Below, piece after piece: positions 5,718-35,095 of a DNA stretch of 64,000 bases; the stretch's first letter is position 1, and each line of letters begins with the position of its first letter. The notes beneath the pieces are model-generated. The model saw only the letters and a program-made list of their open reading frames with translations, made no database searches and was not told where the DNA came from. The stretch is from positions 1 through 64,000 of the forward strand of contig JAHQWL010000001.1 of NCBI GenBank assembly GCA_029856155.1, in the 5' to 3' direction. This DNA is from Promethearchaeia archaeon (GTDB lineage Archaea; Asgardarchaeota; Lokiarchaeia; Sigyniarchaeales; SOKP01). The translations under genes and the position numbers were made by a program.

Positions 5718-5819
5718 CGCAGATGGAGGGACTCGAACCCCCGAGCGCTCACGCGCACCGGCTCACTTGATTATTAATCATTCTCAAGGCCGGCGTCTTA
5801 CCAGCTAGGCTACATCTGC
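5718..5819 (-). tRNA. tRNA-Ser(TGA) with 19-nt intron at position 37/38 (intron 5764-5782)
   Basis: GCAGATG/CATCTGC acceptor stem; CCGGC-CT-TGA-G[AATGATTAATAATCAAGTG]A-GCCGG; long variable arm; BHB helix CTTG/CAAG with bulges AGA and TGA. Confidence 0.92.
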
Positions 5820-6624: not shown

Positions 6625-7794
6625 ATGAAAGAAGATAATTTATTAAATCAAGAATTAGATGTAGTGGAAATAAACAATCACCACTATTTTCAAGTAGATC
6701 TTTTGAAAGCTGTGATGATTTTATTAGTTATATTTGATCACACATATCCTTGGGATTTAAAAGATTTCCTGGGTGTTGCTTTATGGGAAAGAATCTCAAT
6801 CCCTATGTTTTTGATAATTATGGGTTTTAATATGGGGCTTTCGTTTAAACAAACTGGTGAAACTTCATTAAAAAACCTATATTCATGGAACTATTTCAAA
6901 AAGAAATTTTGGCGTTATATCTTTCCATTTTTTGTATTATATCTATTTTCAACTTTAATAGGATTAGCTATTAACGGTTTCGATCTTGATGCTCTTAATC
7001 AATATCAATATAGGTTTGATTTTGCACATCTTTTTATCGGAATCATGCCTTTCTACGGTCCAGGAAATTGGTTTTTACCCGTTATTTTTTGGTCGATATT
7101 GATAATGCCTTTAATATACAAGGGATTTTCAGGAAAATTAAAGTGGAGAATTACAACTTTAATCCTATGTTATGCTGTAGAATTATCAATTCATCTGGCA
7201 GTCTTGTTTATTCTTATTCCTAATGTTACATCTGCACCTGAATTTTATTTTTATTATAGTTTTATCTCTACTACACCCTTCTTCATGTTATCTGCTATTG
7301 GATTAGGAATGTGGTTTTCTAGGAATCCTGATATCTTTGCAAAACAAAATCTGTTCATGTGGATTCTATTTCCTTTAAGTTTTGTCTATCTTATCGCGTA
7401 TCAGTTCTTTAGGGTCGATCTTATCTTCATGTTTGGTGATTACCACTTATTTGTTTTTCCCTATTCTGCGTTCTTAATCTTAATTGTATTAAAGTTATTT
7501 CCAAAAGAAGTAAACAATAAGAATTTATTCTTTAAGGGAATCAGAATAATTAGTAAATCGACATATCATATTCTATTGACACAGATATTATACTTCGCAA
7601 TTACTATAAGTTTATGGGGAGATCATTATGGTGCAAGCATTGTTGGAATTAACTCTGGATATGAACCTCTTACAGTTTTTCTATATCTCTTAGTAAATTG
7701 GGTGATATGCATTCCTCTCGGTGCCTTATGGTACTATGGTGAATCTAAATTACGAGATTATCGATTAAGGAGGAGAAGATCCGATATCAAATAA
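6625..7794 (+). CDS. acyltransferase 3 family membrane protein (OafA-like)
   Basis: VDLLKAVMILLVIFDH, IPMFLIIMG, GNWFL, SKSTYHILLTQ; multiple TM helices. Confidence 0.82.
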   Translation: MKEDNLLNQELDVVEINNHHYFQVDLLKAVMILLVIFDHTYPWDLKDFLGVALWERISIPMFLIIMGFNMGLSFKQTGETSLKNLYSWNYFKKKFWRYIFPFFVLYLFSTLIGLAINGFDLDALNQYQYRFDFAHLFIGIMPFYGPGNWFLPVIFWSILIMPLIYKGFSGKLKWRITTLILCYAVELSIHLAVLFILIPNVTSAPEFYFYYSFISTTPFFMLSAIGLGMWFSRNPDIFAKQNLFMWILFPLSFVYLIAYQFFRVDLIFMFGDYHLFVFPYSAFLILIVLKLFPKEVNNKNLFFKGIRIISKSTYHILLTQILYFAITISLWGDHYGASIVGINSGYEPLTVFLYLLVNWVICIPLGALWYYGESKLRDYRLRRRRSDIK

Positions 7795-7936: not shown

Positions 7937-8019
7937 GCAATCGTCGCTTAGCCTGGTAGAGCGCCGGTCTGCTAAACCGGTGTCCAACGGACTCGTGGGT
8001 TCGAATCCCACCGATTGCG
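7937..8019 (+). tRNA. tRNA-Ser(GCT)
   Basis: GCAATCG/CGATTGC acceptor stem; CCGGT-CT-GCT-AA-ACCGG; long variable arm; GGTTCGAATCC. Confidence 0.94.
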
Positions 8020-9447: not shown

Positions 9448-9694
9448 AAGAGTCATAAACAGAGAAGATTGAAATACACCAGTTCTATTTTAATTTTTAT
9501 ACTCTCTTTTTAAAATATTTAAAAAAAATATAAATTCACTCATTTATTAATTCTTTTTAAGATATTAAAAAAAAAATAACCTATAAAAGAAATAGTATAA
9601 ATAAGAAAAATTAAAATCTTAATTTTAGTTGATTTAACTAAAAAATAAAGGATTTTAATATTTTTAAAATAAATAAAAAGGAGGATGATTAAAT

Positions 9695-10449
9695 ATTTTT
9701 CAAGGTCAAGGTCGTGGCTATGATATGGCCATAACGCAATTCTCGCCAGAGGGGCGGCTTTTTCAAGTAGAATATGCTATTGAAGCTGTCCGAAGAGGGA
9801 CAACCGCAATTGTATGTAGAAACAAAAATTCTGTAGTGTTTGCAGTTGAAAAGAAAGGTTCTGAGCTTCAAGAACAAAGTATAGGTTCAGAAAAAATTTT
9901 TAAGATTGATGATCATATTGGAGTAGCCATTGCTGGTTTAACCGCTGATGCAAGAGTGCTTATTGATCGTGCACGGGTTCAAGCTCAAGTTAATATATTG
10001 AATTATGATGAACGAATTTCTGTTAAGGATAGTACGCTAAATATTTGCGAATATAAGCAAGTATTTACTCAAAATTAAATGGAATTTATCCATTAATGAG
10101 ATATGCTGGCGTACGTCCTTTTGGAGTTTCATTTCTGATCGCTGGAATAGATAATGACGGCAATACCTCCTTATATTTAACTGACCCAAGTGGAGCAATG
10201 TGGGGTTATAAAGCTTTTGCTATAGGCTCACAAGCAACTGAAGCAAGAACTTACCTTGAGGAACATTATAAAGAGGATATAAGTGATGAAGAATTGAAAT
10301 TATTACCATTAAGAACATTAAAAGAATTGATGGGAGATAATTTAAATAAAAATACGTGTGATGTTGCTTATATTTTAAAAGAAGATAGAACTTTCAAGTT
10401 ATTAAATTTGGGAGAAAAGGAAGAATTATTAAATAAATTGACTTCCTAA
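9695..10449 (+). CDS. psmA: proteasome alpha subunit, interrupted by a 29-nt BHB intron; probable ATT start; spliced product 241 aa
   Basis: GYDMAITQFSPEGRLFQVEYA in the first ORF and AGVRPFGVSFLIAG..DPSG in the second; removing 10074-10102 gives contiguous FTQNAGVRPFG; GGAGG at 9680-9684. Confidence 0.9.
10074..10102 (+). other. putative mRNA intron with bulge-helix-bulge motif in psmA
   Basis: 4-bp helix CTCA(10068-71)/TGAG(10097-100); 3-nt bulges AAA(10072-74) and ATA(10101-03); inner hairpin TTAAATGGA/TCCATTAA; contains TAA stop; 29-nt removal restores frame. Confidence 0.82.
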
Positions 10450-10564
10450 AAATTTTATTAAAAATCAAGGTAAAACCCCTTTATATTTATCTTTTAACGG
10501 AAAGACAAAAGAAATAGGAAAAAAAAACGAGATAATTCAATCATTTAAATTGTGAACGTATAAC

Positions 10565-11356
10565 ATGATTGATAGAGCAAGAATTGATTTAGGCGGATAT
10601 ATCATAGGACGTATTGAGAACTCAGGCAGAATTTTTGAGATGTTAATGGATCCCGAGAAAGCATGGGAAGCAAAAAAAATTATTCGGGAAGAAATCAACG
10701 AGAGATTAAAAGCAGGGAAAGAAAAATCACGATTTACTGTAGAAGAGATAATAAAAAATCAGAAAATTGATTTAGAATTAATTTTTGAGAGTTTTTCGGT
10801 ATTTGAAGATTTAAGAAGAGGAAAAAGAGCAACAGATGGAGATATGGAAGTGGTATTCAATACTACAGATGGAATGACTATCGCTGGTAGGATTCTATTA
10901 GAAGGAGAAATACATTGGACAAAAGCCCAAAGAGAAGAAGAAAGACAAAAAAAATTAAAACAAATTATAACAATTATTAGTAAAAATGCTATTAATCCAC
11001 AGAATAAAAAACCTCATCCAATCCAACGAATAGAAAAGGCAATTGAAGAAGCAAATGTTAAAGTTGATTTAATGAGAAGTGCTGAAGAACAAGTTGATGA
11101 TATTGTTAAAAGTATTCGAGCTATAATTCCTATTAGAATTGAACAAGTTGAAATGGCTATCAAGATTCCAACAGCTTTTACAGCAAAGGGTTATAATATT
11201 GTCGCCCAATATGTACAAATTAAAAAAGAAGAATGGCAATCTGATGGATCTTGGGTTGCTGTTGTAAGTTTGCCTGCAGGATTGCAAATGGAGTTAATTG
11301 ATAAATTAAATAAATTAACACATGGGAGAGTTCAGACAAAAATATTAAAATCCTAA
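10565..11356 (+). CDS. sdo1: ribosome maturation protein SBDS/Sdo1
   Basis: FEMLMDP, ILLEGEI, NAINPQNKKPHP..RIEKA, EEWQSDGSW, PAGLQ; superoperon position. Confidence 0.93.
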   Translation: MIDRARIDLGGYIIGRIENSGRIFEMLMDPEKAWEAKKIIREEINERLKAGKEKSRFTVEEIIKNQKIDLELIFESFSVFEDLRRGKRATDGDMEVVFNTTDGMTIAGRILLEGEIHWTKAQREEERQKKLKQIITIISKNAINPQNKKPHPIQRIEKAIEEANVKVDLMRSAEEQVDDIVKSIRAIIPIRIEQVEMAIKIPTAFTAKGYNIVAQYVQIKKEEWQSDGSWVAVVSLPAGLQMELIDKLNKLTHGRVQTKILKS

Positions 11357-11435: not shown

Positions 11436-12227
11436 GTGAGTAGTATTATGGAAGAGAATGAAGAACATATAGATGATGATTTCGAAGATTTTGAAGAGGA
11501 TGATGCTTCTAGAGCTGTAGTTGTACCTGGAGAAGTGTTAACTGAAGATGTTAATAACTTTTTACCCGGGAGAGGAACTATTTTAAATAAAGAGAAGAAT
11601 AAAATTATTTCTTTGAATATTGGGTTAAAACAAATAAAAAAGAATTATATCAATGTAATTCCTCTTAGGGGATTTTATACACCTCGCCCTGGAGATAAGG
11701 TAATCGCATTAGTAGTTGATAAAAATCCAGTTAAATATAAATGTGATATTAATTCTAAAGATTTTGGTCAACTTAAACCAAAGAATACAATTAAAAGAGG
11801 TAGAACAAGAGGATTCAGAGGCGGTGATGTTGATCGGGAAGATAGTAGCACCGAAAGATTTGATATAGGAGAAATTTTAATTGTGAAAGTTCTCTCTGCT
11901 GATCGTTTAAATAAACCTGAATTGACAACTGTTGGAAAATATTTAGGTAAAAAAAGTGGTGGTATTGTTATTACGATAGATCCACCTAAAATTCCAAGAG
12001 TTATAGGAAGAAATGGTTCAATGATTAAAATGTTGAAGTCCTTAACCGGTTGTAATATCTTTGTAACACAGAATGGCCGTATATGGCTGAAAGGTGAAGG
12101 TATTGCTCATGAAAGGTTATTAATCGAATCTATCCATAAAATTGCTTCTGAAGCCCATACTGTGGGGTTAACAGATAGAATGCAAGAATTTATAATAAAT
12201 GAAAAAAAGAAGAGAGGTATTGAATGA
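11436..12227 (+). CDS. rrp4: exosome RNA-binding subunit Rrp4
   Basis: VVVPGE, YTPRPGDKVI (S1), KIPRVIGRNGSMI..QNGRIW (KH), EAHTVGLTD. Confidence 0.93.
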   Translation: MSSIMEENEEHIDDDFEDFEEDDASRAVVVPGEVLTEDVNNFLPGRGTILNKEKNKIISLNIGLKQIKKNYINVIPLRGFYTPRPGDKVIALVVDKNPVKYKCDINSKDFGQLKPKNTIKRGRTRGFRGGDVDREDSSTERFDIGEILIVKVLSADRLNKPELTTVGKYLGKKSGGIVITIDPPKIPRVIGRNGSMIKMLKSLTGCNIFVTQNGRIWLKGEGIAHERLLIESIHKIASEAHTVGLTDRMQEFIINEKKKRGIE

Positions 12228-25302: not shown

Positions 25303-26559
25303 TTATTCAACCTCCAATAAACCATCCCAGAGAGTTCCATGAATCATATCTTTCGGAAATTCTCCAGTTTCATTATATTTAACTAACTTTATTAATTGGT
25401 TTTTCTGTTGTTCAAGTGAAACTTCTCTTCCTCCCAATCCATTAATTATTGGCAATATCTTTGCAGTTCCTTTAGTTTCATGTAGAGCAGCTTTCACTTC
25501 ACAACTTATAGGACCTCCAGTTTGACATCCAAATGCTGTAGCTCTATCTATCACTCCAAAAACTTTCACCTTTTTTGCAACTTCAATAATATCTTCCGTT
25601 GGAAAAGGTCTAAAATGACGAAGCTTTACCATCCCAACTTTATATCCTTCATCTCTCAAATCATCTACAGCTTGTTCCATTTGTAAAGCTAGATCTCCAT
25701 ATATAATTACTCCAACATCTGCATTATCCATTTTATATTCTTGAATTAATCCATTACCATAATTTCTCCCAAAAATTTTCTCAAATTCTTTAGCAACGTT
25801 TTTAATTTTCTCTTTTGCTCTTATATTTGCATCATGAATTTTTAGTCTAAATTCGTAATAAAAACTGGAGGGCATGATAAGATTGCCAAACATCATTGGT
25901 CTTTTTGGATCAATCCAGATATGTGGCCAACCTTCCTCACTTGGTAATGGTGGTAAAAATTTATCCACAAGATCTTGGTCTTCTAAAATAACTGGTTTTG
26001 ATGTATGTGACAGAATAAACCCTCCATAAGATACAAACTTAGGTAAAAGAATATCTTGATCTTCACAAACCTTATATGACATTAAAATTTCATCATAAAT
26101 TTCTTGATGTTCTGCGCAGAAACAACTCATCCACCCTGTATCTCGTTGGCTTATCACATCAGTGAAATCTGCCCATATGTTCCAAGGAGGAGCAGGTCCT
26201 CGAGATGCTATAGCGACAACGATGGGAAGTCTAGCTCCCGCAGCCCAATGAATCATTTCATGGGCATAAAATATCCCTTGACCTGATGTAGCTGTAAACG
26301 TTCTAGTTCCTGCTGTACTAGCACCAATAACAGCGGCAAAAACACTGTGTTCTGACTCCATTTTTATATATTCAGTTCCTGGCATTAGCCCATTATCTAC
26401 AAATTCAGATAATTTTTCAACTACTGTAGTTTGCGGAGTTATAGGATAGGCGCTAATTACCTGAACTCGTGCTGATTTTGCTGCATACGCAGCTGCTACA
26501 TTTCCTTTTATAATGATAGATTCTCTCTTTTGGACAAAATCTTTCTGAGCTTCAGTCAT
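25303..26559 (-). CDS. porA: 2-oxoacid:ferredoxin oxidoreductase alpha subunit
   Basis: [30 protein letters not shown]. Confidence 0.94.
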
Positions 26560-34411: not shown

Positions 34412-35095
34412 ATGAGTATTTTTTTTAGTATCTTCACTTTAACTCCCTGGGATTCACTTAATCTAAAGACTTTAACTGAAGTGAAATTATATTCATTGAA
34501 AAATATATTTAAGACTTTTCCCGTAATTGAACCTGAATTTTTCGATGATCTACTTTCAAATTTATATAAATTCAATCATTATTCCTTGATTGAAAGCATC
34601 AAACGGATTGTTGGTCCTAAGAATGAGGATTATGATATAAAACTATGGAATTTTGTGTGGGGAATGGATAATGAAAGAAGAATTTTTCAATTTTTATTTC
34701 AAAAAGTTACAAATGAATTAAAAGGTTCTCAAGCAACATTAGTAGCTCTAGCACCTCCAGAATTAAGTAAATTATTTAATCAATATAAAAAAGAAGCTAT
34801 ACTAAGGACTTTATCTTTACTAAATAATCCAAAAAAAATGAAATTTGTAATGGTTTTGGCACCTAAAGGAAAATCTATCATCGAAGAACAGCAGTTGCTT
34901 CAAGTAAATAAGAAAGATTTAGAAAAATTAAAATTCAAAAATATACTCAAGCAAATACCGAATATCAAAGGGCAATGGTTTATTGCTAATTCACCATGTT
35001 GTCCCAGTTGTAAAAAGGAGATTACAGAGATAAAGGGTTTGAATGTCGAGTTTCTTAAATTTAAATGTCCTTACTGTGGGTTTCAAAAAAAATAA
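34412..35095 (+). CDS. hypothetical protein with C-terminal zinc ribbon
   Basis: CPSC...CPYCG at the C-terminus. Confidence 0.7.
   Translation: MSIFFSIFTLTPWDSLNLKTLTEVKLYSLKNIFKTFPVIEPEFFDDLLSNLYKFNHYSLIESIKRIVGPKNEDYDIKLWNFVWGMDNERRIFQFLFQKVTNELKGSQATLVALAPPELSKLFNQYKKEAILRTLSLLNNPKKMKFVMVLAPKGKSIIEEQQLLQVNKKDLEKLKFKNILKQIPNIKGQWFIANSPCCPSCKKEITEIKGLNVEFLKFKCPYCGFQKK

Follow-up and report, generated by a model that had tools for sequence, protein, structure and literature searches.

The pre-mRNA of cbf5 of Crenarchaeota contains an intron whose borders with the exons fold into the motif known as bulge-helix-bulge (BHB), and the splicing of this intron has been shown experimentally (Watanabe 2002; Yoshinari 2006; Yokobori 2009, PMC2738675). 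In the literature searched, cbf5 is the sole archaeal protein-coding gene with documented BHB splicing, in agreement with the initial annotation of the DNA analyzed here, according to which archaeal coding introns are known mainly from this gene. The literature searched on introns of Asgard archaea (including PMC11291895 and bioRxiv 10.64898/2026.10.13.758758) describes introns of tRNA genes only, and no protein-coding introns. The DNA analyzed here is a stretch of 64,000 nt (positions 1 to 64,000 of contig JAHQWL010000001.1, assembly GCA_029856155.1), termed the window, from a Lokiarchaeial genome, termed G000, which is a 104-contig metagenome bin with 97% completeness and 5.7% contamination. 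It contains psmA, the gene for the proteasome alpha subunit, which is interrupted by 29 nt at 10074-10102. These 29 nt are very probably a spliced BHB intron of the tRNA type, carried by the pre-mRNA of one of the two alpha-subunit genes that this archaeon has. The kind of element is known, but the gene and the phylum in which it is located are new.

The psmA intron resembles the cbf5 intron in that its borders with the exons form a BHB, a motif that is often relaxed, in that its excision restores the reading frame, in that the splicing endonuclease (EndA) of the host is predicted to be hetero-oligomeric and to have a broad specificity, and in that it is present in some members of a clade and absent from others, a distribution that has been read for cbf5 as gain and secondary loss. 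In contrast, the two introns differ in gene, intron site and phylum (Lokiarchaeia of Asgard for psmA), and show no sequence relation. Within its clade, the psmA intron is much rarer (3 of 54 species) than the cbf5 intron, and the gene tree does not place its carriers in a single group. Nor is it alone in its host, which contains a further BHB intron on contig C44 and two short inserts in rpl11 that do not fit a strict BHB. The splicing of cbf5 is known from experiments, whereas that of psmA is predicted.

The psmA intron is also similar to the non-canonical archaeal tRNA introns, which have an HBh' or relaxed BHB motif and are cut by EndA of the (alpha-beta)2 or epsilon2 type (PMC5829648), in its predicted enzyme and in its cut rule. 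Both belong to the size class of 29-32 nt, have one strict and one relaxed site, and show lineage-specific gains and losses, and Asgard genomes are rich in such introns of tRNA genes (PMC11291895; bioRxiv 10.64898/2026.10.13.758758). The psmA substrate differs from them in that it is an mRNA without a tRNA body, in that its exon parts are constrained by coding, and in that its product has to be translated after splicing. The introns of HAC1 and XBP1, which are cut by IRE1 and ligated by RtcB or Trl1, are likewise short, frame-changing mRNA introns in proteostasis-related genes that are removed by an endonuclease and a tRNA ligase without a spliceosome, but IRE1 and its motif (paired 7-nt loops) differ from EndA and the BHB. 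These introns form a conserved stress switch, whereas most close relatives lack the psmA intron, a finding that speaks against a conserved role in regulation. Finally, the bypass elements of T4 gene 60 and of Magnusiomyces mitochondria (byps) resemble the psmA insert in that they are short, hairpin-containing coding gaps with a stop after the last decoded codon, but the take-off and landing codons of psmA do not match, and its geometry fits EndA.

Boundaries, fold and conservation of the psmA insert

The psmA gene is split into two open reading frames (ORFs), one at 9725-10078, which terminates with ...KQVFTQN-TAA, and one in a different frame at 10096-10449, which begins with MRY-AGVRPFGVSF.... 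The split falls within a conserved motif of the protein, as described in the initial annotation, and the sequence, the ORFs and the two Pfam halves agree on this point. Relative to the Pfam model, nothing is missing from psmA but the junction codons. The cut rule used for EndA is cleavage after the second nucleotide of each bulge. When the 29 nt given by this rule are excised in silico, the junction reads CAA A|AT GCT GGC (TQNAG), and the spliced protein consists of 241 aa when it is translated from the in-frame ATT at 9695 and of 231 aa when it is translated from the ATG at 9725. The features of the locus are summarized in Table 1.

Table 1. Coordinates, in the window, of the interrupted psmA gene and of its predicted splice motif
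Feature	Coordinates	Strand	Basis or remark
Shine-Dalgarno-like GGAGG	9680..9684	+	Read from sequence; 10 nt ahead of the likely start
psmA exon 1	9695..10073	+	PF10584 and PF00227 positions 1-96; terminal base is the first of the Asn codon
Predicted exon-exon outer helix, 5' strand (alternative register)	10057..10064	+	Partner 10103-10110 in the minimum free energy fold
Central 4-bp helix H, exon strand CUCA	10068..10071	+	Pairs with UGAG 10097-10100 in the minimum free energy fold
5' bulge AAA	10072..10074	+	Minimum free energy fold; predicted cut after A10073
Predicted 29-nt intron	10074..10102	+	Equivalent placement 10075-10103, owing to a flanking A
Inner hairpin h' (UUAA-A-UGGA / UCCA-UUAA, loop AUUUA)	10075..10096	+	Stems 10075-78 and 10080-83 / 10089-96
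In-frame stop TAA	10076..10078	+	Right after the Asn codon of the unspliced frame
Central helix H, intron strand UGAG	10097..10100	+	Minimum free energy fold; pairing conservation
3' bulge or internal-loop nucleotides AUA	10101..10103	+	Predicted cut after U10102
psmA exon 2	10103..10449	+	PF00227 positions 99-189; AT of the Asn codon, AGVRPFG..., TAA 10447-49; collinear with orthologues

A search of 40 relatives at the DNA level and an alignment of 19 same-genus orthologues reveal a single gap that comprises precisely these 29 nt in 19 of 19 cases, and all 19 read ACN CAR A|AY GCN GG (TQNAG). The excision that had been proposed from the EndA rule therefore agrees with the gap in every one of these orthologues. 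Because the gap in the orthologues is identical to the interval that the EndA rule gives on the fold, the boundaries favour a BHB intron. The chance that fold-predicted cut sites coincide with the orthologue gap is about 1.5e-4, and a strict BHB of given position and length occurs in G000, which has a G+C content of 30%, with a frequency of 7.3e-5. Across about 33 kb of synteny with G005, the closest relative, the 29 nt are the sole insert of at least 12 nt in the window.

The minimum free energy (MFE) fold of the region 10050-10120 has an energy of -12.6 kcal/mol (z = -1.9). It contains the central helix formed by CUCA and UGAG, the AAA bulge on the 5' side, and the inner hairpin, all of which had been read from the sequence at the outset. 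The 3' bulge that had been read together with them is relaxed in this fold. The most apt description of the predicted splice motif is a strict 5' site combined with a relaxed (HBh'-like) 3' site. The outer helix between the exons was initially noted to be weak in its canonical register, and an alternative register, 10057-63/10104-10, was offered. The alternative register is the better supported of the two, with 88.6% of the cells paired over 7 pairs in five sequences, as compared with 80% over 2 pairs for the canonical one. It also contains a double change at two synonymous sites, at which G57-C110 is replaced by A-U.

When 154 genomes of the order were scanned with a sequence pattern, an insert at the same site was detected in two more species of the genus, G076 and G083. 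The G076 sequence is identical to the record NJBH01000015, 'Loki_b32'. Homologous inserts are also present in two contigs of JGI metagenomes, L032, which carries a 31-nt variant, and L033, which is similar to G076. The four pairs of the central helix and the eight pairs of the inner stem are all paired in five of the five homologous sequences. Compensatory double changes are observed in three of these pairs, one of which joins exon and intron: U75-A96 and U80-A92 are both changed to C-G in G083, and U69-A99 is changed to C-G in L032, in which a synonymous change of the exon from ACU to ACC is matched by a change of the intron from UGAG to UGGG. Two more pairs of the inner stem are changed from A-U to G-U. 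When the partner columns are slid by 1-3 positions as a control, 29-47% pairing is obtained, and 3 of 500 column shuffles match the observed values. The AAA of the 5' bulge is identical in the five intron-bearing sequences, and the 3' bulge has AU, AC or CC at its first two positions and invariably A at its third position. Apart from these bases, the loop and bulge bases of the intron vary freely among the sequences. The comparison of related psmA genes that was proposed initially has thus yielded both the insert in four other assemblies and the compensatory changes.

The exons of the intron-bearing genes evolve under strong purifying selection. The ratio dN/dS between these genes is 0.06-0.10 at dS of 0.8-1.5, which is the same as that between intron-less pairs. 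The in-silico-spliced proteins of the four full-length carriers are uninterrupted and consist of about 240 aa each, and the gene of L033 is cut by the end of its contig. The four full-length carriers contain no other stops or frameshifts except a second BHB insert in G083. This insert of 32 nt is located in exon 1 (L031:1367-1398) and folds as a palindromic GUAC/GUAC helix with two UAA bulges and an inner hairpin. When the EndA rule is applied to it, the sequence ...ADARVL|IDRARVQ... is restored. An 11-nt direct repeat, AGAGTACTAAT, flanks this insert and points to a duplication as the origin of its helix and of both bulges.

A conserved peptide, FQGQGRGYD (FQ(G/Q)(Q/A)GRGYD), is encoded upstream of the ATG at 9725. 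The orthologues have ATT, ATA, GTG or ATG at the position equivalent to 9695, and the GGAG upstream of psmA is retained in the orthologues of G076, G083 and G005. Judged from the conserved N-terminal peptide, psmA most likely starts at the non-canonical ATT at 9695 and not at the ATG at 9725, which corrects the start of the gene.

Predicted splicing reaction and alternative explanations

The genome contains two EndA genes (PF01974), C13:3758-4351 and C52:106867-107472. In the product of the C13 gene, Tyr/His/Lys are retained, and its nearest counterpart is the catalytic alpha subunit of Aeropyrum pernix EndA (3p1z_B). The C52 paralogue, in which Ser occupies the position of the catalytic His, is beta-like. 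RtcB is encoded on C83. Asgard EndA is reported to be an (alpha-beta)2 enzyme with an L1 loop that confers broad specificity and allows relaxed motifs (PMC5829648), and the pair of genes in G000 corresponds to this (alpha-beta)2 arrangement. According to the proposed mechanism, CUCA of the exon (10068-71) would pair with UGAG of the intron (10097-100) in the transcript, and the rest of the intron would form a hairpin that stacks on this central helix, such that the 5' splice site lies in a canonical 3-nt bulge and the 3' splice site lies in a relaxed bulge or internal loop that adjoins the exon-exon helix. The heteromeric (alpha-beta)2 EndA would then cut the RNA after A10073 and after U10102, and RtcB would ligate the exons, to give a message for a 241-aa alpha subunit with ...FTQ-N-AGVRPFG.... 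Translation of the unspliced RNA would end at the TAA at 10076. The spliced junction is predicted to be ...TTTACTCAAA|ATGCTGGCGTA, with the junction word GTATTTACTCAAAATGCTGGCGTACGTCC, and the junction peptide is predicted to be QVFTQNAGVRPFGVSF. The circular intron would have the junction ...AATGAGAT joined to ATTAAATGG....

Several results weigh against this mechanism. In the MFE fold, the 3' side of the motif is a 3x2 internal loop with 10065-67 instead of a canonical 3-nt bulge, and the outer helix in its canonical register consists of only two weak pairs (A67-U104 and U66-G105), one of which is not formed in G076 and L033. For G083, the BHB is not recovered in the MFE fold (z = 0.0), and the inner stem of L032 requires two additional unpaired nucleotides. 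A genome-wide scan for a strict BHB (H of 4 bp, inner helix of at least 4 bp, outer helix of at least 2 bp, length of 12-100) that fuses two frames of at least 50 codons gives 385 hits, as compared with 385-420 hits under six controls with shifted cuts, and therefore neither an excess nor statistical support for many such introns; since tandem gene boundaries dominate these hits, the scan cannot count introns. Of three metatranscriptome runs, X15 and X16 provide RNA contigs over 9678-9806 and 10275-10800 only, and X18 provides none at all, so that no contig of the three runs extends across 10058-10104. Because no RNA contig covers the junction, we infer the splicing itself. The spliced transcript, the excised intron and the junction peptide have all not been observed. 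In addition, all variants have TAA, TAG or TGA right after the Asn codon (TAG in G083 and TGA in L032 at the position of 10076), together with an in-frame ATG, or GTG in G083, at 10096, an arrangement that suits a stop-restart cassette. Finally, a second intact alpha paralogue of 238 aa, which is 45% identical, is encoded on C26, and the loss of psmA may therefore be survivable.

A stop-restart cassette would mean gene fission, in which two polypeptides, ...FTQN and M-R-Y-AGVRPFG..., are produced from the unspliced RNA and assemble into one alpha subunit. The position of the split between two secondary-structure elements, at the TQxxGVRPFG loop, is consistent with such a fission. It is nevertheless highly unlikely, because the ATG at 10096 is located inside the helix and is not preceded by a Shine-Dalgarno sequence, and because neither the covariation of U69 of the exon with A99 of the intron nor the compensatory upkeep of the hairpin is explained by it. 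The exon of G083 between its two inserts consists of 38 codons, without ATG or TTG and with a single GTG about 18 codons before its end, and yet dN/dS of the whole gene is 0.06. Since this middle exon has no usable start, three separate polypeptides are not credible. Alternatively, psmA may have been inactivated by an insertion and may be a pseudogene with an inert hairpin, redundant with the C26 paralogue. The broken frame, the intact second gene and the rarity of the insert point in this direction, but lineages that have diverged to a dS of about 1 or more share the insert, each of them has two intact exons with dN/dS of 0.06-0.10, the stems are maintained by compensatory changes, and both alpha paralogues are found across the genus. 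Inactivation is accordingly very improbable. Weaker second matches suggest that most relatives likewise carry a second alpha copy. Because this copy is kept across relatives, the interrupted psmA is one of two maintained paralogues and not a decaying duplicate. Another intact psmA in the genome was considered in the initial annotation; an intact alpha gene is present on C26, but this gene is a conserved paralogue and not a replacement.

Translational bypassing of the T4 gene 60 or mitochondrial byp type would require take-off of the ribosome at the Asn codon, passage over the hairpin and landing ahead of GCU. The stop codon follows the would-be take-off codon directly, the hairpin starts there, and in the second insert of G083 CUA precedes both ends, owing to the 11-nt direct repeat. 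However, the codon before GCU/GCN is UAU, CAC or CAU in the variants and never matches the take-off codon AAU/AAC. Bypassing also does not require the exon-intron helix H, which covaries nonetheless, and does not predict the exact BHB geometry, which recurs in the gene on C44. It is extremely improbable that psmA is expressed in this manner. An artefact of assembly or binning, by which the 29 nt would be absent from the DNA of the organism, might be considered for a 104-contig metagenome bin with the contamination given above. It is scarcely conceivable, because a 715-nt Logan contig that was assembled separately from DNA run X3 spans 9620-10334 with 0 differences, insert included, and because the homologous inserts in the four other assemblies have substitutions of their own. 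Misassembly, which the initial annotation asked to exclude, is therefore contradicted by these sequences. Splicing of a BHB intron is the reading that is retained below.

Distribution of the probable intron and of other inserts in the genus

Of the 54 species of one Lokiarchaeial genus, three carry the intron. Among the 57 species representatives of a second sample, the reading frame continues across the site in 52, and Loki_b32 is the only one with a split gene. The initial claim of a BHB intron in a core protein-coding gene of Asgard archaea is thus favoured by the comparative tests, but the intron is not a general feature of Asgard archaea. Its absence from the rest of the order rests on an exact degenerate pattern, which is blind to differing flanking codons, and the firm absences are those of the genus-level alignments. 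When the 29 nt are searched against the whole genome by blastn-short, no further copy is found. The carriers do not form a clade on the psmA gene tree: G000 groups with the intron-less G005, G008, G021 and G022, and the other two carriers each have a sister of their own, which is the intron-less G024 for G076 (bootstrap 100) and G004 for G083 (bootstrap 94). The introns of G000 and G076 differ at four positions, all of them unpaired, at an exon dS of 1.2. No obvious co-conversion tract is found in the psmA flanks of the carriers. By these sequences, the psmA intron may be either an old intron that has been lost many times or one that has spread between species by recombination.

Two records that seemed to bear on this distribution were set aside. 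The psmA gene of G006 (L084, CP070831.1, a closed 'chromosome') seemed to lack its 5' half, but the record has a run of N at this position and is uninformative. This run of N is located inside psmA, with unrelated sequence upstream, and looks like a scaffold gap or a misjoin. The gene in L086, which was considered as an equivalent of L032, is another one and lacks the intron. Records titled Hermod-, Odin-, Thor- and Hodarchaeota also contain near-identical psmA orthologues of this genus, as does one record titled 'Nanopelagicaceae bacterium' (L034-L090); on the evidence of these sequences, the taxonomic labels of those metagenome-assembled genomes are unreliable.

A canonical BHB intron of 30 nt, which is among the hits of the genome-wide scan, is located in an AIR-synthase-related gene of G000 at C44:81452-81481 (L095:1053-1082). 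Its BHB consists of an ACGU/GCGU central helix, a 9-bp inner helix and a 10-bp outer helix. The insert is present in 10 genomes of the genus with compensatory changes of the stems, and the gap in G003 and G011 comprises precisely the 30 nt given by the EndA rule. The essential single-copy rpl11 gene, also on C44 (about 135,990-136,050; L098:1397-1470), contains inserts of 37 and 36 nt, which flank a micro-exon of 21 nt (ASGGPPI). This gene is uninterrupted in at least 12 genomes of the genus, and others hold one of the inserts or a different one. The two rpl11 inserts are real, yet they do not fit in the strict BHB search and are not counted as BHB introns. A hit of the genome-wide scan at (-)25329-25359 was also rejected as an intron, as it represents the overlap of two adjacent oxidoreductase subunit genes, without a gap in G005. 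When three genes that neighbour psmA were checked for similar splits in about 75 relatives, only one ambiguous case, in G005, was found. In G005, the 263-aa gene downstream of psmA (11436-12227) is two-framed (L008:3223-3730), with about 7 surplus nt in an acidic N-terminal region, for which a frameshift, an error in sequencing or a very short insert could account.

ARAGORN detects 23 tRNA genes in G000, 11 of them with introns, in spite of the 97% completeness of this genome, and Rfam detects a 102-nt tRNA at 5718-5819 (-) of the window that is missed by ARAGORN. Many tRNA genes of G000 are probably hidden by non-canonical introns. The low count agrees with the heavy interruption of tRNA genes in Asgard archaea (PMC11291895; bioRxiv 10.64898/2026.10.13.758758). 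As compared with the window, G005 (C15) has 17 extra nt at 7942/7943, inside tRNA-Ser, 15 extra nt at 7397/7398, inside the ORF 6625-7794, and 26 extra nt at 34417/34418, at the start of the ORF 34412-35095. These extra nucleotides could be introns that are absent from the genome of the window.

Implications for Lokiarchaeia

Given its rarity and its patchy distribution within the genus, the psmA intron is probably a tolerated, nearly neutral insertion and not a device for regulation that has been conserved. It appears somewhat more likely than not that EndA and RtcB routinely splice mRNAs in this Lokiarchaeial genus, and that short introns of the BHB type come and go in many coding genes, as in psmA, with one or two of them, and in the AIR-synthase-related gene. 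If so, close relatives of eukaryotes would already live with interrupted coding genes, and, in the absence of a nucleus, ribosomes would have to be kept off the unspliced messages by other means. Such genes are split or truncated by standard gene callers, and the proteomes and completeness estimates of Asgard archaea are therefore slightly wrong. The patchy distribution of the psmA intron, together with an intron in G083 that looks born from a duplication, raises the question of how such introns are gained and lost. The intron further raises the question of how translation of the unspliced mRNA is avoided when transcription and translation are coupled, an argument that has been used for the origin of the nucleus. 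Taken together, the conserved and covarying intron in a core housekeeping gene, the second psmA intron in a relative and the other interrupted genes of G000 suggest that the splicing of mRNA through the machinery for tRNA is more than an oddity of Crenarchaeota, and that it is apparently at work in the archaeal lineage that is closest to eukaryotes.

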